This document shows positions 11,594-54,893 of a DNA stretch of 64,000 bases, in pieces (the stretch's first letter is position 1; the number at the start of each line of letters is the position of its first letter). Source of the stretch: Prosthecobacter sp. (GTDB taxonomy: Bacteria; Verrucomicrobiota; Verrucomicrobiia; Verrucomicrobiales; Verrucomicrobiaceae); NCBI RefSeq assembly GCF_021733925.1, contig NZ_JAIPJY010000022.1; one strand, written 5' to 3'. The position numbers and the translations under genes were made by a program. The notes below the pieces were generated by a model that saw only the letters and a program-made list of their open reading frames with translations, was not told the DNA's origin and ran no database searches.

Positions 11594-12870
11594 CACCAAG
11601 GCTCCTTTCCGAGAAGGTCACGACACAAGGCGACGGCTGAGCCAAAGGCGTCCTCATGGAAACCGTGGCGAAAGTAGCTGCCGCAGAAATAGGTGCTCTG
11701 GTCGCGGGAAAGCCGGTTGAGATCAGGCAGCCTCTTCTGCGCATCGATCGCAGCCAGGTCGAAGAGCGGATGCTCGTAGTTGATGCGCTTCAGCACCTTA
11801 TCCGGGGCGATTTCATAAGCCGCGTTGATGGCGACAAAATAGTTCGTCTTGTCTGACACTCCCTGAAGGCTGTTCATCCAGTAATGCGTGCTCGGCTCGA
11901 TGCCACCACCCGCTGTTGGTTTGATACGATAGTTCCACGACGCCCAGCACTTCTTGGATTTGGGCATGAAGCTCTCATCCGTGTGCAGCGTGGCGATGTT
12001 GGGCTGGTATTTGAAACACCCCAGCAGCTCGCTTTCGAGATCCGTCGGCTGGGCCAGCATGCGCAGCGTTTGATCCGCATGACTGGCGAAGACGACCTTG
12101 TCGAAGACCTCAGCCCCGCCATCGCGCGGGAACACCTTCACGCCATCCGCATCCCTCTCCACACGGACCACCGGAGCCCCCAGCCGGATGCAATCCTTGA
12201 AGGGCGCGGTCAGTTTTTTCACATACGAGCGCGCACCATCCGTCACAGTCCGCCAGGGATGCTGCGTGTTCAGGCCGAGGAATCCGTGATTATGCCAGAA
12301 GTGGATCAACGTGAGCGCTGGAAATTCCAGCATCAGCTCCGGCGGTGTGGACCACACGGCGGAACCCATCGGGATGATATAGAGATTGAGGAAATCACTG
12401 CCGTACCCCCTCACCTCCACGTAATCGCGCAGTGTCATACGGGCAAAACGCTCCTCACTCAGCGCCGCCACAGCCTCGGCATTGAAGCGATTGATCTGCA
12501 GGATGAACTTCCAAAATCGCGGACTGATCAGATTGCGCCGCTGGCCAAAAAGATGATTCAACGAGGTGCCATTGTATTCGATGCCGCTTTGCAGATGCGA
12601 CACGCTGAAGGACATCGAGGTCGGCTTCGTCTCCACATCGAGTTCCTTGAACAGGCGGCTCAGCAGCGGATACGTCACATTGTTGAAGACCATGAAGCCG
12701 GTGTCCACCGGCAGCTCGCGGCCTGCTTCATTCACCGTCACGGTGTTGGTGTGGCCGCCAGCATAGTCGTTCTGCTCGAAGATCGTCAGATCAAAATGCT
12801 TCTGCAGAAAGTGTGCACAGCCCAGCCCGGCGACACCCGTTCCTATGATGGCTAGGCGCGGACGATTCAT
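11593..12870 (-). CDS. FAD/NAD(P)-binding oxidoreductase of the cfa cluster (UfaD-like candidate)
   Basis: AIIGTGVAGL, GGHTNT, VDTGFMVFN..TYP, WASWNY, YEHP, HGFHEDAFGS. Confidence 0.9.
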   Translation of the reverse strand: MNRPRLAIIGTGVAGLGCAHFLQKHFDLTIFEQNDYAGGHTNTVTVNEAGRELPVDTGFMVFNNVTYPLLSRLFKELDVETKPTSMSFSVSHLQSGIEYNGTSLNHLFGQRRNLISPRFWKFILQINRFNAEAVAALSEERFARMTLRDYVEVRGYGSDFLNLYIIPMGSAVWSTPPELMLEFPALTLIHFWHNHGFLGLNTQHPWRTVTDGARSYVKKLTAPFKDCIRLGAPVVRVERDADGVKVFPRDGGAEVFDKVVFASHADQTLRMLAQPTDLESELLGCFKYQPNIATLHTDESFMPKSKKCWASWNYRIKPTAGGGIEPSTHYWMNSLQGVSDKTNYFVAINAAYEIAPDKVLKRINYEHPLFDLAAIDAQKRLPDLNRLSRDQSTYFCGSYFRHGFHEDAFGSAVALCRDLLGKEPW

Positions 12871-13871
12871 GCGACAGGATTTTGGGCTGATTGTTTGAGC
12901 TGCGCCGCCTCACGATACACGCTGGGCGGCACTCCCTTGAGATCCCAGATCAGCCCCGTCCACGAAAGCATCTTGAGCACGTAGTAGGACACATCAATCT
13001 CCCACCAGAAGAAGCCCTGACGTGCGGCCCCTGCATAGCGGTGGTGGTTGTTGTGCCAGCCTTCACCCAGCGTCAGCAGCGCCAGCAGCAGACTGTTGCG
13101 ACTGTCATCATCGGTCTTGAACCGCTTGGAGCCGAACACATGAGCCAGCGAGTTGATGAAAAACGTCGCATGCAGCAGGATCACCGTGCTGATGAAAAAG
13201 CCCCACACAAACATCTGCGCACCGTTGGTCCCGAGTCCGGGGGCATAGCGTTCCATCAGCCATCCCGTGAGCCAGAGGAGAGCCCCATAGAGCAGCGGCA
13301 CGATTTGATCATGCCTGTTGAGAAACACCAGCTCAGGAAACTGCTCCAGATCCCGAATGCGGCTGTAGTCCGTGGGGAAGTTTTTGAAGCTGGTCAGCCA
13401 GCCGATATGAGACCAGATGAAGCCGCGCACCCTTGGCGAATGCGCATCCGGCACTTCGTCCGAATGCTGGTGATGGTGGCGGTGCACCGATGCCCACCAC
13501 AAAGCCCCGCGCTGGCAGGAGGTATTGCCCAGCACCGCAAACAGGAACTGCATCAAACGCGAAGTGCGGAAGCTCCGGTGCGAGAAATAACGATGGTAAA
13601 AGGCCGTGATGGCAAACATGCGCACCGCATAGAGCACCAGCGCGGCCACCAGCGCCGTCCAGCTGAATCCGACCCATAGCACGCTCAAACAGCCCAGATG
13701 CAGCACGATGAACGGCAGGCAGCGCCGCCAGTCGATCGCGTCGGTCAGCTTGTCGTCCCCCTCCCAGCCCGGCGGGCGGTAGTCCGAGTCAAACCACTGC
13801 CTCATCATCACGGCAATCTGCCAGATGAGGTTTCGTCGCTTCGGTAAAGTGGGAGGGCTCTCGCTTTTCAC
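12867..13871 (-). CDS. Acyl-CoA (delta-9 type) fatty acid desaturase
   Basis: Three His boxes HRYFSH, HRHHH, HNNHH; INSLAH; GEGW; GTG start uncertain. Confidence 0.92.
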   Translation of the reverse strand: MKSESPPTLPKRRNLIWQIAVMMRQWFDSDYRPPGWEGDDKLTDAIDWRRCLPFIVLHLGCLSVLWVGFSWTALVAALVLYAVRMFAITAFYHRYFSHRSFRTSRLMQFLFAVLGNTSCQRGALWWASVHRHHHQHSDEVPDAHSPRVRGFIWSHIGWLTSFKNFPTDYSRIRDLEQFPELVFLNRHDQIVPLLYGALLWLTGWLMERYAPGLGTNGAQMFVWGFFISTVILLHATFFINSLAHVFGSKRFKTDDDSRNSLLLALLTLGEGWHNNHHRYAGAARQGFFWWEIDVSYYVLKMLSWTGLIWDLKGVPPSVYREAAQLKQSAQNPVA

Positions 13872-44243: not shown

Positions 44244-44795
44244 ATGAAAGAAAAAAAAGAAACCCTCCCGGCTTGGTACGTGGTGCATACGCGGCCGAAG
44301 TGCGAGCATATCGCGGCTTCGCTGATGGTGGGGCTGGAGGGGGTGGAGACGTACTGTCCGCGCATTCGGTTTCAGAAGAACACGCGGCGGGGCAAGGTGT
44401 GGTTCGTGGAGGCGCTGTTTCCGAGCTACTTTTTTGCGCGGTTCATTCCGAATGATTCGATGCGGGCGGTGAAGTACTCGCAGAGTGTCATTAAGGTGGT
44501 GGATTTTGGGGGGAATTTGACGTCGGTGCCGGACTCGGCCATCGCGGCGCTGAAGGCGGAGATGAAGGACATCGAAATTTGCGAGGTGGAGGTGGGCGTG
44601 AAGGTGGGGGATACGGTGGAGCTGACGGAGGGGCCGATGCGGGGGATGAAGGGGATTGTGAATGCGATGCTGACGGGCGTGGAGCGTGTGCGGATTCTGC
44701 TGGAGTTTTTGGGACGGGAGAATGCGGTGGAGGTGCCTCTGTCGAAGATATTGACGGAGCATACGCCACGGACAGTGCTTGCGGCGTCGCGGTGA
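44244..44795 (+). CDS. NusG paralog (RfaH/UpxY/LoaP-like antitermination factor)
   Basis: WYVVHTRP, EALFPSYFF, KVVDFG..VPD, VGDTVELTEGPMRG (KOW), RVRILLEFLGR. Confidence 0.9.
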   Translation: MKEKKETLPAWYVVHTRPKCEHIAASLMVGLEGVETYCPRIRFQKNTRRGKVWFVEALFPSYFFARFIPNDSMRAVKYSQSVIKVVDFGGNLTSVPDSAIAALKAEMKDIEICEVEVGVKVGDTVELTEGPMRGMKGIVNAMLTGVERVRILLEFLGRENAVEVPLSKILTEHTPRTVLAASR

Positions 44796-44836
44796 CCCGT
44801 TCTTCGCTAAAGCTTCGAAGGGCAAGCTGCGCTTGG

Positions 44837-44899
44837 GTGCCGCTGTCGAAGATTTTGACGGAGCATCAGCCGCGTGCGGTGATGGGGGCGTCGCGGTGA
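44837..44899 (+). other. Diverged duplicate of the last 21 codons of the NusG paralog
   Basis: VPLSKILTEHQPRAVMGASR* versus VPLSKILTEHTPRTVLAASR* at 44733-44795. Confidence 0.9.
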
Positions 44900-49002: not shown

Positions 49003-50613
49003 ATGCTTACTCTTCGCGACGTCACCAAGACCTTTAACGCCCGCACGCTGTTTAGCGCTGCGTCGATGACCATCAACTATGGGGAGCGGGTGGCGCTGGT
49101 GGGGCCGAATGGGGCGGGGAAATCGACGTTGTTTTCGCTGATTTTGAAGACGGACACTCCGGATGCGGGTGAGGTGATCCGGGATGAGTGGACGACGGTG
49201 GGATTTCTGCCGCAGGAGAGTGAGCCGATTGGCAATGAGACGGTGCTGGAAGTGGCGACGGGCAAGGCGGGGGAGATTGAGGCGCTGGAGAAGATTTTGC
49301 GTGATTTTGAGGCTGTGGGTGATGTTTCCAGCCCGGAATACTTTGAGGCGCATGCGAAGCATGATGCGCTGCAGGACCCGCAGACTGAGGCGAAGGCGAA
49401 GCGCATCCTGAAGGGATTGGGATATAAGGAGGAGGATTTTTCGAGGCCGGCGCGTGAGTTTAGCGGTGGCTGGGTGATGCGTGCGCACATGACGCGGCTG
49501 CTGGTGATGGAGCCGGATCTGCTGCTGCTGGATGAGCCGACGAACCATCTGGACCTGCTGTCGCTGATGTGGTTCCGGAATTACCTGAAAAATTATCCGG
49601 GGGCGCTGCTGATCATCTCGCATGACCGTGACTTCATGGATGAGCTGGTGCAGCAGGTGTATGAGATCGAGGAGGGCAAGCTGCAGGCGTACCAGGGGAA
49701 CTACAGTGACTACCTGAAGCAGCGCGAGGAGAATTACGAGCGTGCGATGCAGTCGTACAAGAATCAGCAGAAGGAGATCGAGGCGATTCAGGATTTCATT
49801 GACCGGTTCCGGTCGGTGGCATCAAAGGCGTCCCAGGCGCAGAGCCGTGAGAAGCAGCTGGCGAAGATGGACAAGCTGGACAAGCCGCGGCCGCTGCGGA
49901 AGGGCTTCCGCTTTAATTTCCCGCAGCCGCAGCGGAGCGGGCAGCGGCTGATCGCGCTGACGGACATTCATCAGGCGTATGGGACGAAGAAGGTGTACAC
50001 GGGGCTGGATCTGGAAGTGGAGCGTGGTGAGCGGACGGTGCTGGTGGGGCCGAACGGGAGCGGGAAATCGACGCTGATCAAGATTTTGGCGGGTGAGGTG
50101 CCGTTTCAGAAGGGTGAGCGCAGGCTGGGGACGAATGTGAAGCTGGGGTATTTTTCGCAGCATCGGGCGGATACTTTGGACCCGGACTGCAGTGTGCTGG
50201 AGGAGCTGAAGCGTGTGGCGCCTGAGCTGCGTGAGGATGAGGCGCGGAGCATTCTGGGGAGCTTCCTGTTCAAGCGTGAGGACGTGCACAAGAAGTGCCG
50301 GGTGCTGAGCGGTGGTGAGAAGAGCCGGGTGAACTTGGTGAAGTTCTTGGTGGATCCGCCGAACCTGCTGCTGATGGACGAGCCGACGACGCATCTGGAC
50401 ATCTGGGCGATTGAGGGGCTGATTCTGGCGCTGCAGAAGTTTGAGGGGACGCTGGTGTTCATCAGCCATGACGTGCATTTCATTCGGTCGCTGGCGACGA
50501 AGGTGCTGCATATTGTGGATGGGAAGGTGACGGCGTATTCGGGGGACTATGATTACTACCTGCAGAAGACGGGCGCGGAGGAGAATGCGCGGGCGGCGGT
50601 GGTGGCGGGGTAG
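49003..50613 (+). CDS. ABC-F family ATPase
   Basis: Two NBDs (GPNGAGKST, FSGGW, LLLDEPTNHL; GPNGSGKST, LSGGE, DEPTTHL), interdomain linker, no TM segment. Confidence 0.95.
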   Translation: MLTLRDVTKTFNARTLFSAASMTINYGERVALVGPNGAGKSTLFSLILKTDTPDAGEVIRDEWTTVGFLPQESEPIGNETVLEVATGKAGEIEALEKILRDFEAVGDVSSPEYFEAHAKHDALQDPQTEAKAKRILKGLGYKEEDFSRPAREFSGGWVMRAHMTRLLVMEPDLLLLDEPTNHLDLLSLMWFRNYLKNYPGALLIISHDRDFMDELVQQVYEIEEGKLQAYQGNYSDYLKQREENYERAMQSYKNQQKEIEAIQDFIDRFRSVASKASQAQSREKQLAKMDKLDKPRPLRKGFRFNFPQPQRSGQRLIALTDIHQAYGTKKVYTGLDLEVERGERTVLVGPNGSGKSTLIKILAGEVPFQKGERRLGTNVKLGYFSQHRADTLDPDCSVLEELKRVAPELREDEARSILGSFLFKREDVHKKCRVLSGGEKSRVNLVKFLVDPPNLLLMDEPTTHLDIWAIEGLILALQKFEGTLVFISHDVHFIRSLATKVLHIVDGKVTAYSGDYDYYLQKTGAEENARAAVVAG

Positions 50614-51074
50614 GGCGGAAGCAAAATTGCAAACTGAGAACTGAAAACTGGGAATTGTAAATGAGCCGGAGGGGGAGGTCTTCGCGTGAGCGTGAGGGAT
50701 GCGACTTTGCGGTGGCGCTGGGCTCATCTCGGCGGAGCGAGATGGCTACTGTACCGGGGCGGAGGAGAATGCGCGGGCGGCGGTGGTGGCTGGTTAAGAA
50801 ATGACGAATGAGTAAATCCGAATGACGAATAACGGAGCCGCCAGAAGGCGGAGGAGGTGGACGCAAAGAGGGGCAAAAAGATGGGACTCTTTTTTTGAGA
50901 ATCTGCTTTGCGCTTTTTGCGACTGACTTCCTACGGAAGAACGGGGCGGAAGGGCGGTTGGTGGACGTTCGTCCGGAACCGCCTAAAGGCGGAACTACAA
51001 TACTTACGCTGGGTTTGCGGGGTCGGGGAGCAGGTGTGCGCCTTCGGAAACCGCACACGGAGTGTGCGGACCAC
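50614..51074 (+). repeat. Mosaic repeat region containing a synonymous duplicate of the ABC-F 3' end (50753-50797), two heptamer arrays and three REP-like palindromes
   Basis: AAACTGA-type array 50624-50658; REP 50725-50749; AATGACG-type array 50800-50834; REPs 50979-50998 and 51051-51074. Confidence 0.85.
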
Positions 51075-51140
51075 TTCACGCTGGGTGGGCGGCAGCCGAA
51101 TGATCGGATCCCGGACCTGTTGCGGCGCAACTGGGCTGCT

Positions 51141-54100
51141 TTATTTCGGGAGGGCGGGGACGAGGAGCTTGGCGCGGTCCACGGCGTCGCGGTCTTTGGG
51201 GCGGAAGCGGATGAGTTCGCGGGCGGCGGCGGGGGAGCCCTGCTGTTTGAGGGAATCGAGGTATTCGTCGAAGGACTGGCGCTCGAAGGGGGAGAGAGGG
51301 CGGGTGGAGGCGGTGGCGAGGAGCCAGCGGGCCCAAGTGACGGCGGTTTCTTCGCCTTTGGCGGGGGTTTTGGGGATGGCGGCGACGGCGGCTTCGTAGT
51401 CGTCGAGGGAGACATCTTCGAGGTTGCCTGCGGGATTTAAATGTACGCGGGCGAGGCCTTCGGCGAACTTGAGGAACCACTCGGGCAAGGGGGTGCCTTT
51501 GGGGGGCATGGGGGAGGTGAAGAAGCCGTGGCCGGCAATGCGGAAGAGGACGCTGCTGCCGTCTTCTGAGACGCGGGCGACGACGATGCCTTCTTCGTCA
51601 TCGCTGGTGCGCGGGGTGTCGCGGATGCCGGGGGTGAGGGCGTCTCCGGTGCGGAGTTCCCAGACGCGGAGTTCGCCTTCATCGGTGACGGTGACGAGAC
51701 GCTGATCATCGGGGCTGAGTGCAATCACCGGCACATAGGAGCGATGCTGCATGGTGACGATGTTTTGGCGGGTGGCGATGTCCCAGACGCGCACGGCGCG
51801 ATCGCGGCCGGAGGTGATGAGGAGTTTTTCGTCCTGGGTGAGGGTGACGGCACCGACGGCGGGCGGATGAAGGAAGGGCTTGCCGATGGGCTTGAGGGTC
51901 CTGGCATCGTAGATGAAGACGGTGCCGTCGGGATCGGCGGCGGCGTACATGGTTTTTTTGCGATTGGCGCCACCGGCTTCGGAGAAACGGAGCTGTTCGG
52001 GGGAATTGTCGGGGCCTTTGATGCGGGTGATGAGGTTCTTGTCGAGAACGTCGACGAATTTGCGGCCTGACATGCGCTCGTGGACATCCCAGACCTGGAC
52101 GAAGGGAACGCCGCCGGGAGCGAGGACGAGGAGAGAGCCGTCGCGGGTGAATTTGGCATCCTTGACGGTGTGATCGATGTGGGAGGACACGAGGGATCCG
52201 GTTTGAATGTCGAACACGCTGACATCGCCATGTCTTGAAATGGTGGTGATGAGGCTGGTGTCCATCGCTGGCGTGGCTTTGAGGATTTCACCGTCATGCT
52301 TGCGGATGGGGAAACGAAGCTTGCCGTTGATGGGATTCCAGATGTGGACGTAACCGCCGGCGTCACCGACGACGACGGAGCGGCCATCGGCGCTGAAGGC
52401 CAGGGAAGTCACTGAGGACGGATGCATGAGAGGCAGCTTCATCTCCTCCGTGCGGAAGTTGCCGACAAAGACTTCGCCTGTGTTCATGCCGAGGGCGATG
52501 AGTTCTTGAACGGGCTCGATGGCGACGTGCAGGAGACCTTTGTCCACCTCGATGGGTTTGCCGACGGCTTGTCCGAGACGCAGATCCCAGGTGGTGGCGG
52601 AGCCTTCAGGGCCCGTGGGGTCGATGAGGCTGCCGCTGAAAATGGAGGCGGCAAAGACGCCGTCGTTGTCCACGGCGATCTCGCCGACGACGCCTTTTTG
52701 CTTCATGACGACGGCGGGGTCCTGAGGCTGGCGGAGGTCCCAGAGGTGGATGGAGCCCATGCCCTCCGCATTGGAGGGATCGATCTCGCTGCCGGCGAGG
52801 AGCTTGGTGCCGTTGCCGGAGAAGGCGATGCAGGTGACGATGCTCGGCATGCGCGGCTGGAGATTGCGGCGCTTGCCGTCTTTGAGGGTCCAGAGTTCGA
52901 CGTTGCCGTCTTCGCGTGCGACGACGACCTGCTGGCCGTCGGGGGTGACATCGAGGCAGGTGATCTCCACGCCGGGGGGGACGGGGTGGTCGGTGCGCTC
53001 GCCGGTTTTCATGTCCCAGACGGAAATGACTTCACGCCGAGGCAGCCGAACTGGCACCGGCGTGGCCGTGGATTTGGGCTGGATGAAGGAGGCTGCAATC
53101 ACCTTGTTTGTCTCACGACTGACGGCGACCTTGGCGGCTTCCACGGCGCCTTCAGGCAAAGCGAGGGGAGCGGTGTCGGGACGGATGAGGTGAACGTTGG
53201 CCAGGAGCGAGAGCAGGTTGGTGGAGGAGAGCTCGTTGGCAGGATCGGTGCGCAAGGAGCGGGCGAGGTAGGCGACGGCGTCGTTGTACTGGCCGCGCTC
53301 GGTGAACTGACGGGCCATCTGCTCGTCGGAGCGGCTGAAGGATTTCTTGAGGTTTTCGCGGCCGAGTTCGGCTTCGATACGGTTGTGCTCTGCCTTGACG
53401 TACAAGGCGGTGCTGGTGATGCCGCCGATCAGCACGGCAAGGGAGATGGCCACTGCAGCGGCCACGCCCACACGATGACGGCGCACAAACTTCGTGATGA
53501 GATAACGCCGGCTGGGCGGACGCGCGGTGATGGGCTCGAAGCTGAGGTAGCGAGTGATGTCGTCGGCGAGATCGTCCGCGCTGCCGTAGCGGCGGTCGGG
53601 ATCGCGTTCGAGTGCCTTGAGCGCAATCCAGTCGAGATCGCCCTGCACGGTGGGCTCGATGGTGGAGGGCTTGGGGGGATCTTTTTCCGCGAGATCGCGC
53701 AGCAGCACATGGATGGGCTTGGCAGCGATGTCGGCAGGGGTGATGAGTGCGCGACCGCAAATGAGTTCAAAGAAGACGCCGCCTAGTGCATAGACGTCTG
53801 AGCGAGTGTCCACAAACGAACTGCCGTTTTCGATCTGCTCGGGGCTGATGTAGCCCGGGGTGCCGACGAGTTGATCGACGCCGGTGGCAATGGTGTGGCC
53901 GGAGCCTTCACCTTCCATGACCTTGGCAATGCCGAAGTCGATGACTTTGGGGACGGCCTTGCCCGCCTCGTCCATCACCATGATGTTGCCGGGCTTGATG
54001 TCGCGATGGATGATCCCTTTTTGATGGGCGTGATTCACGGCACGGCAGACGGGAATGAAGAGCGCGAGGCGCTGACGCAGATCGAGGCCGTTCTGCTTGC

Positions 54101-54893
54101 AGTAGCTGGTGATGGAGCGGCCCTTGACCAGTTCCATCACGAAATAAGGCGCACCAATGTCTGTTTCACCCGCGTCCAGAATGCGGGCGATGTTGGGATG
54201 CTCCATGATGGCGAGCGTGCGCTGCTCAATGGCGAAACGGCCGAGGATGTCGGAGGAGGTGACGCCGGCTTTGACGATCTTGATTGCCACGATGCGGTGA
54301 ATGGGCTTCACCTGCTCGGCGCGATAAACGACGCCGAAGCCACCTTCGCCGAGCTTGTCGAGCAGGCGGTAGCGGTCGCCGATCCAGCCGTCGTTGCCGG
54401 TGAGGGACTCCATGTGGGAGCGCGGCTTCGAGGTGGTGCCCATCGAAGCCATGGAACTGGCGGTGGCGGCAGGCAGCCCACCGTGGCTCGGCATGGTCGA
54501 AGCACCGGGAAGTGTGGCGGCACCGGGCAACGGCGCGGACTTGCCGGTCGGGATGGCTATCGTCTGATCCTCCGGACCCAGCGTGATGTTGCCTGTATCC
54601 AAATTCGGCGAAAACTTTTGCTGCGACCCCATCGTCGCCGCTGGCAGGCTGCGGCTTGGATTCGGGATGGCGATGGTCATGTCCTCGGGACCCAGGGTGA
54701 TATTGCCCGTGGGTGTCTCCTCGGCTGGCTCCGGTGTGGCGAGCGGCTTGCCGGGTTTGAGATTGGGGATCGTAATCGTCCTGTCGTCAGGCCCCATCGT
54801 GACCATTCCAGTCGGTGTCTCTTCGGGTGGCATGAACTTTGCATCCTTGTTTTCCGAGGATGGTGGTTCTGGTTGGGCCGGATCAGGATTCAC
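51141..54893 (-). CDS. Hanks-type Ser/Thr protein kinase with TM segment and WD40 repeats
   Basis: LGEGGFGVVY, VAIK, HRDIKPGN, DFGIAK, GTPGYISPEQ, SDVYALG; WD repeats e.g. SGRDRAVRVWD; start could be 54833. Confidence 0.95.
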   Translation of the reverse strand: MNPDPAQPEPPSSENKDAKFMPPEETPTGMVTMGPDDRTITIPNLKPGKPLATPEPAEETPTGNITLGPEDMTIAIPNPSRSLPAATMGSQQKFSPNLDTGNITLGPEDQTIAIPTGKSAPLPGAATLPGASTMPSHGGLPAATASSMASMGTTSKPRSHMESLTGNDGWIGDRYRLLDKLGEGGFGVVYRAEQVKPIHRIVAIKIVKAGVTSSDILGRFAIEQRTLAIMEHPNIARILDAGETDIGAPYFVMELVKGRSITSYCKQNGLDLRQRLALFIPVCRAVNHAHQKGIIHRDIKPGNIMVMDEAGKAVPKVIDFGIAKVMEGEGSGHTIATGVDQLVGTPGYISPEQIENGSSFVDTRSDVYALGGVFFELICGRALITPADIAAKPIHVLLRDLAEKDPPKPSTIEPTVQGDLDWIALKALERDPDRRYGSADDLADDITRYLSFEPITARPPSRRYLITKFVRRHRVGVAAAVAISLAVLIGGITSTALYVKAEHNRIEAELGRENLKKSFSRSDEQMARQFTERGQYNDAVAYLARSLRTDPANELSSTNLLSLLANVHLIRPDTAPLALPEGAVEAAKVAVSRETNKVIAASFIQPKSTATPVPVRLPRREVISVWDMKTGERTDHPVPPGVEITCLDVTPDGQQVVVAREDGNVELWTLKDGKRRNLQPRMPSIVTCIAFSGNGTKLLAGSEIDPSNAEGMGSIHLWDLRQPQDPAVVMKQKGVVGEIAVDNDGVFAASIFSGSLIDPTGPEGSATTWDLRLGQAVGKPIEVDKGLLHVAIEPVQELIALGMNTGEVFVGNFRTEEMKLPLMHPSSVTSLAFSADGRSVVVGDAGGYVHIWNPINGKLRFPIRKHDGEILKATPAMDTSLITTISRHGDVSVFDIQTGSLVSSHIDHTVKDAKFTRDGSLLVLAPGGVPFVQVWDVHERMSGRKFVDVLDKNLITRIKGPDNSPEQLRFSEAGGANRKKTMYAAADPDGTVFIYDARTLKPIGKPFLHPPAVGAVTLTQDEKLLITSGRDRAVRVWDIATRQNIVTMQHRSYVPVIALSPDDQRLVTVTDEGELRVWELRTGDALTPGIRDTPRTSDDEEGIVVARVSEDGSSVLFRIAGHGFFTSPMPPKGTPLPEWFLKFAEGLARVHLNPAGNLEDVSLDDYEAAVAAIPKTPAKGEETAVTWARWLLATASTRPLSPFERQSFDEYLDSLKQQGSPAAARELIRFRPKDRDAVDRAKLLVPALPK

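Follow-up and report, generated by a model that had tools for sequence, protein, structure and literature searches.

Why should the last codons of an intact gene occur a second time a short distance downstream, and why should the two copies differ only at silent positions? This question is raised by a gene of the ABC-F ATPase family in a genome of Prosthecobacter (Verrucomicrobiota). The gene lies in a 64,000-nt stretch of contig NZ_JAIPJY010000022.1 (hereafter the window, i.e. the whole stretch of DNA that was analysed). The source genome, referred to as G000, is a metagenome-assembled genome (MAG) of 7.3 Mb in 127 contigs, among which the contig of the window is labelled C19; relatives within the genus are designated G001 and onwards. 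We found that the second copy occupies the place where the gene ended ancestrally, that both endings are genuine gene termini in other species of the genus, and that comparable duplications recur throughout the genome. We consider it probable, though with real reserve, that the second copy is the old end of the ABC-F gene, displaced by 184 nt when DNA of a related lineage recombined into this place.

Two copies of the ABC-F gene end

The first copy (copy 1, 50569..50613, plus strand) is in frame with the ABC-F open reading frame (ORF), encodes TGAEENARAAVVAG* and ends in GCG GGG TAG; it is the working terminus of the gene. The last 14 codons and the stop recur 184 nt downstream of copy 1 as copy 2 (50753..50797, plus strand), which ends in GCT GGT TAA, is identical to copy 1 at 40 of 45 nt and is presumably a displaced former terminus. 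An exact core of 32 nt is common to both (50575-50606 and 50759-50790). An earlier note, made from the letters of this DNA, had placed the two tails at these same coordinates and had described their five differences as silent; both statements hold, each of the differences (ACG/ACC, GGC/GGG, GCG/GCT, GGG/GGT and TAG/TAA) lying at a third position. The tail is present only twice in the 7.3-Mb genome.

Copy 2 has neither a start of its own nor an upstream frame, since the ORFs that overlap it (50661-50804 and 50686-50811) use other frames, and the sequence gives no sign that it serves as a terminus in G000 today. Its first bases call for some caution. Elsewhere, copies of the REP repeat that precedes copy 2 often finish in ...CTACTGTAC, so that the AC of the first codon of copy 2 may belong to the REP rather than to the tail, in which case the two 5' differences may represent the junction instead of a diverged tail. 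A simple tandem duplication was also considered and was rejected, the DNA after copy 2 being unrelated to the DNA after copy 1.

The ancestral site and the alleles of related species

In the closest relative, G001 (94.4 % nucleotide identity in the gene), a single tail is followed by GAAATGACGAATGAGTAAATCCGAATGACGAA, i.e. by the DNA that follows copy 2 in the window. This post-stop DNA is identical at 32 of 32 nt to the AATGACG heptamer array found after copy 2 (50798..50835, plus strand), which is the ancestral sequence directly after the ABC-F stop. As the single tail of G001 adjoins this array, copy 2 sits at the ancestral position. The AATGACG context after the ABC-F stop is common to G001, G067, G103, G098 and G087. 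Judged from these alignments, the inserted material is copy 1 plus 139 nt or, equivalently, 139 nt plus a second tail; the 139-nt non-coding insert itself (50614..50752, plus strand) is absent from G001.

The earlier note had looked to close relatives on two points, namely which variant of the tail each of them uses and whether they contain the 184-bp unit. On the latter, neither G001 nor any of 78 other species loci contains the insert or a second tail; in the genus as a whole, a second tail was found in only 2 of about 105 genomes. On the former, both variants turned out to be working termini in other Prosthecobacter species. GCT GGT TAA followed by GAAATGACG is the real ABC-F terminus and context in G067, as is GGT TAA GAAATGACG in G098 and G103, and GCG GGG TAG is the real terminus in G006, G043, G046, G120 and G063. 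The closest alleles are not the same for the two copies: those of G006, G043 and G120 differ from copy 1 by 1 nt, those of G067 and G098 from copy 2 by 3 nt. Relative to the tail of G001, copy 1 differs by 4 nt and copy 2 by 5 nt.

A survey of 32 distinct ortholog tails, which are 1-13 nt from copy 1, gave 181 silent changes for 39 replacement changes, the peptide being almost invariant; inspection of the tail peptides showed that the replacements are mostly one V-to-I change. Because ortholog tails diverge almost only silently, five silent changes are the normal distance between two alleles.

Two further relatives bear on the locus. In G048 the ABC-F stop is directly followed by an AACTGA array, with homology reaching ~68 nt into the insert, so there is a lineage in which the DNA natively following the gene is similar to the left part of the insert. 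In G071 the ABC-F tail underwent an independent duplication of 42 nt (42/42 identical) around a different repeat element of 102 nt; this duplication spans about -41 to +1, that of G000 about -45 to +1. The G071 duplication lies at L043:448-644; a further copy of its 102-nt element is found 325 nt downstream, and the left end of the element, GGCGGAGGAGA, is similar to the beginning of the duplicated tail.

Composition of the insert and the repeat arrays

The earlier note was also accurate on the DNA between and beyond the tails: the 139-bp insert holds an AAACTGA-type heptamer array and a GTAG-type REP whose CTAC end lies at 50749, and a different heptamer family, AATGACG, follows copy 2. The AACTGA-type array (50625..50672, plus strand) belongs to a dispersed repeat family of ~48 nt, with at least 15 copies in G000 at 87-97 % identity. 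The REP-type hairpin (50714..50752, minus strand) reads (GT)ACAGTAGCC on the minus strand together with the stem CATCTCG/CGAGATG, and 43 copies of at least 26 nt, with a conserved stem and CTAC/GTAG end, were counted in G000. Its GTAG end, its hairpin, its dispersed copies and the Y1 transposases of the genome together identify this 39-nt sequence as a repeat of the REP/RAYT type.

The 139-nt insert was further considered as a single mobile unit, and this was rejected: only one other full-length relative was found in 105 genomes (in G017, at an unrelated locus, with 78 % identity), and the array and the REP occur independently of each other in G000. An Rfam scan of window positions 50300-51300, insert and heptamer array included, matched no known RNA family. 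No promoter-like site was found around the duplicated tail, and the single terminator-like site lies at the distal end of the spacer.

Two observations concern these repeats more generally. G000 contains 21 matches to Y1_Tnp (IS200/RAYT-type transposase), several of them short stand-alone frames of 140-170 aa, i.e. of the size expected for RAYT, and this fits the many REP families of the intergenic regions. Arrays with a 7-nt period directly follow stop codons in Prosthecobacter, with units such as AACTGA(G/A), AATGACG, ATTATGAAGGATGA, AACTTTA and GGTTAGAGGCCTGCG, and the family found at one gene varies between species at many loci of the genus (e.g. L045, L035 and L040).

Gene-end duplications across the genome

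The last 75 nt of every long ORF of G000 were searched for recurrence within 1.5 kb downstream. About 12 clean loci were retrieved, at which a gene end of 39-258 nt is found again 150-1070 nt downstream and the similarity ends at the stop codon (-2 to +15 nt). Over these loci, the differences between copies comprise 69 silent and 23 replacement changes, for a random expectation of 23 % silent (binomial P ~1e-25 under neutral decay). As the loci were detected by nucleotide similarity, this ratio is not an artefact of selection. A control using an internal window (-378 to -300 of each ORF) yielded no clean displaced fragment, its matches being confined to tandem-repeat and CRISPR regions. The inserts consist of toxin-antitoxin cassettes at three loci (one Fic/Doc pair and two PIN/VapC pairs, according to Pfam), of small ORFs of unknown function at four, and of repeats only at four others including the ABC-F locus. 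Tyrosine integrases (PF00589) gave 11 matches in G000, none of them on C19 and none within ~20 kb of the tail-duplication loci.

Two of these sister loci are the most informative. At C103:65260-66113 (L053:961-1814), the final 61 nt of a 404-aa gene occur again 793 nt downstream with four differences, all silent, and the insert consists of an antitoxin-like ORF and a Fic/Doc toxin gene. Relatives display all three forms of this locus: the empty site, with the gene directly followed by the downstream gene (G076 and G007); the duplicated form as in G000 (G043); and the gene contiguous with the Doc cassette but without a second tail (G017), which is just the arrangement that a donor would have.

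At C109:82430-83731 (L059), the duplication comprises the final 258 nt of a 655-aa gene, with 16 silent and 3 replacement changes, and encloses an insert of 780 nt with two paralogous small membrane-like ORFs. The right part of this insert is 96 % identical to G048, which has no second tail, the flanking gene being 85-90 % identical. The junction between cassette and copy 2 lies in a 6-nt microhomology, GTGATC: G048 reads ...ACGAAGTGATC|ATGATT, the gene of G000 reads ...CCAGGTGATC|GAAGAAC, and the junction in G000 reads ...ACGAAGTGATC|GAAGAAC. On this alignment, the microhomology is a signature of illegitimate recombination.

The other gene-end duplications were located at C75:173098-174043, C14:9212-10046, C14:77151-78177, C80:33823-35050, C66:140932-142003, C108:9453-9743, C76:57700-58000, C88:20090-20420 and C123:14668-15008. 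The PIN/VapC pairs are enclosed at C75 and at C14:9212-10046; three of the other loci in this series hold single unknown ORFs and the remainder hold repeats. At C75 the copies are mismatched at only 3 of 77 nt, and 62 consecutive nt that include the stop codon are identical. At C76 the tail and an AACTTTA heptamer array stand three times in tandem, and at C123 the displaced copy has decayed, with a stop and replacements.

Three side observations are recorded here. In the window, at 44733-44899, a NusG paralog ends in VPLSKILTEHTPRTVLAASR*, and beyond a palindromic insert of 41 nt this end recurs as VPLSKILTEHQPRAVMGASR*; the layout is the same, but replacement changes are present. An identical direct repeat of 59 nt with an apparent tRNA 3' end (GGTTCGAATCC..., recognised by eye) lies at C103:127335-127393 and again at +305 nt; a direct repeat of a tRNA 3' end is a classic footprint of an integrative element or of its remnant. 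Lastly, C9:~11880-13530 holds a CRISPR-like array, with at least a dozen copies of the 36-nt repeat GTCTCCAGTGCCTTTCGGCGGGTGTGTGCTGAGGAC at ~73-nt spacing.

Probable displacement of the old gene end by recombination

If DNA of a related lineage did displace the old end of the ABC-F gene, the donor would have been a Prosthecobacter lineage with its own version of the gene end and its own downstream repeats, i.e. the heptamer array and the REP. The left join would have formed by homologous pairing inside the ABC-F gene, and the right join would have been illegitimate, with short homology, about 40-45 nt before the stop of the recipient. Such an event would correspond to homology-facilitated illegitimate recombination (HFIR) or to a topologically equivalent single crossover with a circularised fragment. 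The reading frame would thereby be kept whole through copy 1, and the old end would persist as a relic without function. For the ABC-F locus, we infer which lineage was the donor, in which direction the DNA moved and by which pathway it recombined.

This scenario would account for the five silent differences because the two ends would have diverged as working termini of orthologous genes, and not because both are used here. The silent-only pattern thus reflects purifying selection on both sequences, most likely exerted in separate lineages before the two were joined. The earlier note had read the same pattern as selection on both copies as coding termini. The signature it relied on is real (5:0 here and 69:23 across the ~12 loci), but the place and time that it implied are probably wrong: both variants are real termini of orthologs and copy 2 is ancestral, which points to selection in separate genomes prior to the joining.

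Several results weigh against this scenario. No donor with the whole 139-nt insert contiguous to the ABC-F tail was found in the genus genomes: G048 matches only the first ~68 nt, and the sole other full-length relative is the sequence of 78 % identity at an unrelated locus of G017. The last 164 nt of the G000 gene are nearer to the B-type clade (94-96 %) than to G048 (90 %, over 225 nt including the array); with a gene that looks native just upstream of copy 1, the donor tract would have to be very short or to come from an unsampled close relative. The microhomology at the ABC-F junction is of at most 2-4 nt (AC or a G-run) and ambiguous. For the 258-nt tails of the sister locus C109, a tree did not reject the two copies as sisters (p-AU 0.52). 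Finally, the independent duplication in G071 has almost the same left boundary as that of G000, which random illegitimate joins would not predict. The G-rich motif GGCGGAGGAG, common to the local repeats, is perhaps a hot spot that explains this recurrence, or perhaps something more specific is at work.

Alternative explanations

An in-situ origin would require that break repair or template switching copied a target of ~45 nt to both sides of the insert, the copies being identical at first and diverging later, possibly with the help of ordinary homologous exchange with other alleles. We regard this as unlikely, even though its layout matches that of published insertions with long target duplication (repeats of 45-423 bp, without a mobility gene; PMC2853133) and though three of the results above suit it well, i.e. 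the perfectly identical tails of G071, the near-identical copies at C75 and the C109 tree, which is compatible with sister copies. The difficulty lies in the kind of change observed. A non-functional copy should change at all codon positions, whereas the ratios are 5:0 and 69:23 where 23 % silent changes are expected. Moreover, three silent changes within the last 9 nt of copy 1 would have to reproduce by chance the allele of other species, while copy 2 retains a G067-type allele.

It is rather doubtful that the copies are the attL/attR-like borders of a cassette which integrates site-specifically at the ABC-F 3' end and brings a surrogate gene end with it; on this view the 139 nt would be either a very small non-autonomous element or what is left of a larger one. 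No integrase is encoded in the insert, on the contig or in the ~20 kb around the tail-duplication loci; the duplicated lengths range from 39 to 258 nt, in unrelated target genes, with repeats, toxin-antitoxin pairs or unknown ORFs as cargo; the insert is built from two independent genome-wide repeat families; and the C109 junction is a plain 6-nt microhomology. These features must be set against the independent hit in G071 at the same gene end with nearly the same boundaries, against the tRNA 3' end duplicated at C103:127335, and against the well-known existence of elements that insert at the 3' end of a gene and rebuild it (e14 in icd, tRNA-gene islands).

A slim chance is likewise given to an undescribed, dedicated insertion route, by which tiny hairpin or repeat elements, and cassettes of 0.7-1 kb with toxin-antitoxin pairs and small ORFs, would home to the last codons of genes, with a carried copy of the end of the target as guide or homology arm. 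If it existed, such a route would explain why the same ABC-F end was struck twice in the genus.

It appears very improbable that two strain alleles were stitched in tandem during metagenome assembly. G000 is admittedly a MAG in many contigs, and the name of its source contig (k141_...) suggests MEGAHIT; scans of metagenome contigs with exact patterns for both junctions found no independent assembly, which counts in favour of an artefact, and an exact protein match retrieved only the MAG's own source contig, plus three similar places. However, the 32 identical bases shared by the copies are far below the k of 141 that the contig name would imply, a false path would presumably need a real read joining the REP end to ACCGGGGCGG, and equivalent structures exist in other assemblies (G071 at the ABC-F gene, and G043, which shares the C103 structure).

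It is just as hard to believe that selection maintains both copies in G000, e.g. with either copy serving as terminus as the insert is gained or lost through recombination between them: all five differences are silent and the 32-nt exact core would permit deletion of the insert via recombination or slippage, but the allelic origin fully explains the pattern, copy 2 lacks both a start and an upstream frame, the copy displaced at C123 carries a stop and replacements, and so few genomes of the genus have a second tail.

Comparison with known systems

Insertion with long target duplication has been described for restriction-modification cargo flanked by near-identical repeats (Furuta et al. 2010, NAR 38:2428, PMC2853133), some of the published repeats overlapping the 3' end of a gene. 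The ABC-F feature resembles these cases in that the insert is missing at the empty site of relatives (G001 and the 78 other species loci), that the flanking direct repeats exceed 30 bp (45 nt here) and align to a single-copy target, and that the non-coding insert has no transposase or integrase in or beside it and the repeat is unique in the genome. It differs from them in its cargo, made of 139 nt of non-coding repeats, and in its repeats, which differ by 11 %, all silently; this difference points to two alleles and not to one duplicated target. On every point compared that defines the category, the feature belongs to insertion with long target duplication, a known but poorly understood kind, and is not a new system. 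The same kind of insertion was reportedly also noticed by Nobusato et al. in 2000.

Sequential or C-terminal displacement of the HFIR type has been proposed for type VI secretion system (T6SS) and Rhs loci (Kirchberger et al. 2017, PMC5361080), and the work on HFIR and displacement cited there includes de Vries & Wackernagel 2002, Prudhomme et al. 2002 and Jackson et al. 2009. The ABC-F locus shares with these a homologous anchor in a conserved gene, new DNA after the anchor and an old 3' part kept downstream as an orphan; the expected microhomology join is seen at the sister locus C109. The tips displaced in the Rhs, contact-dependent inhibition (CDI) and T6SS systems code for distinct toxin domains, are accompanied by immunity genes and are presumed to be under selection, whereas the displaced tip of the ABC-F gene encodes the same peptide and the gene is of a housekeeping type. 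Taking the sequences as they stand, the features of HFIR are only partly present at the ABC-F locus and are fully present at sister loci.

Duplication of a gene end over 109-950 bp has been shown experimentally to result when a truncated circular molecule recombines with the chromosome by a single crossover (Amarir-Bouhram et al. 2011, PMC3240628). There too, the duplicated end of a homologous gene flanks the inserted DNA; that demonstration, unlike the present case, involved a plasmid in E. coli conjugation. A double-stranded circle of 184 bp would be physically unlikely, and the linear HFIR route may therefore be more plausible for such a small insert.

The insert also recalls REP/REPIN elements mobilised by RAYT (Y1 HUH), since its right-hand 39 nt are a GTAG-ended hairpin and the genome encodes many Y1_Tnp proteins. 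To our knowledge, REP/RAYT transposition does not duplicate tens of target bases. The REP is probably cargo or a bystander and not the cause of the duplication. Lastly, the layout is that of integrative elements located at gene 3' ends (tRNA-gene islands, e14 in icd), with a surrogate end at the gene and the displaced original beyond the insert; it departs from them in having no integrase, apparently no conserved core, a variable repeat length and unrelated targets.

The ABC-F gene and its surroundings

The ABC-F gene (49003..50613, plus strand) is intact according to the ORF list, its translation and Pfam, and encodes 536 aa. Two ABC_tran domains (2.2e-51) are joined by an ABC_tran_Xtn linker (8.3e-33), with no membrane domain, which assigns the protein to the ABC-F ATPases; the gene is of the translation-factor and housekeeping type. 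Orthologs were found in 40 of 41 relatives, with 80-98 % identity. The neighbours are a peptidase-like gene and a convergent gene with a kinase domain and WD40 repeats (51141..54893, minus strand; ORF list and Pfam), whose 3' end aligns downstream of the ABC-F gene in G001 and G071 and forms the conserved far border of the intergenic region.

Implications

Taken alone, the ABC-F duplication is a harmless recombination scar, of value as a marker: the displaced end would record that the 3' region of the gene was overwritten with DNA of another lineage. If two alleles were indeed joined, some lineage should carry ...GCG GGG TAG GGCGGAAGCAAAATTGC... followed by the REP and running on into DNA other than the tail. 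The synonymous-only signature offers a simple computational test between the joining of alleles and duplication in situ, and it is a warning for annotation, as a second gene end that differs only silently need not be functional. On the scale of the genome, about a dozen such scars, three of them with toxin-antitoxin cassettes, suggest that one-sided homologous recombination is routine in Prosthecobacter, and that it may be a way for these Verrucomicrobiota to gain small cassettes without transposases or integrases.

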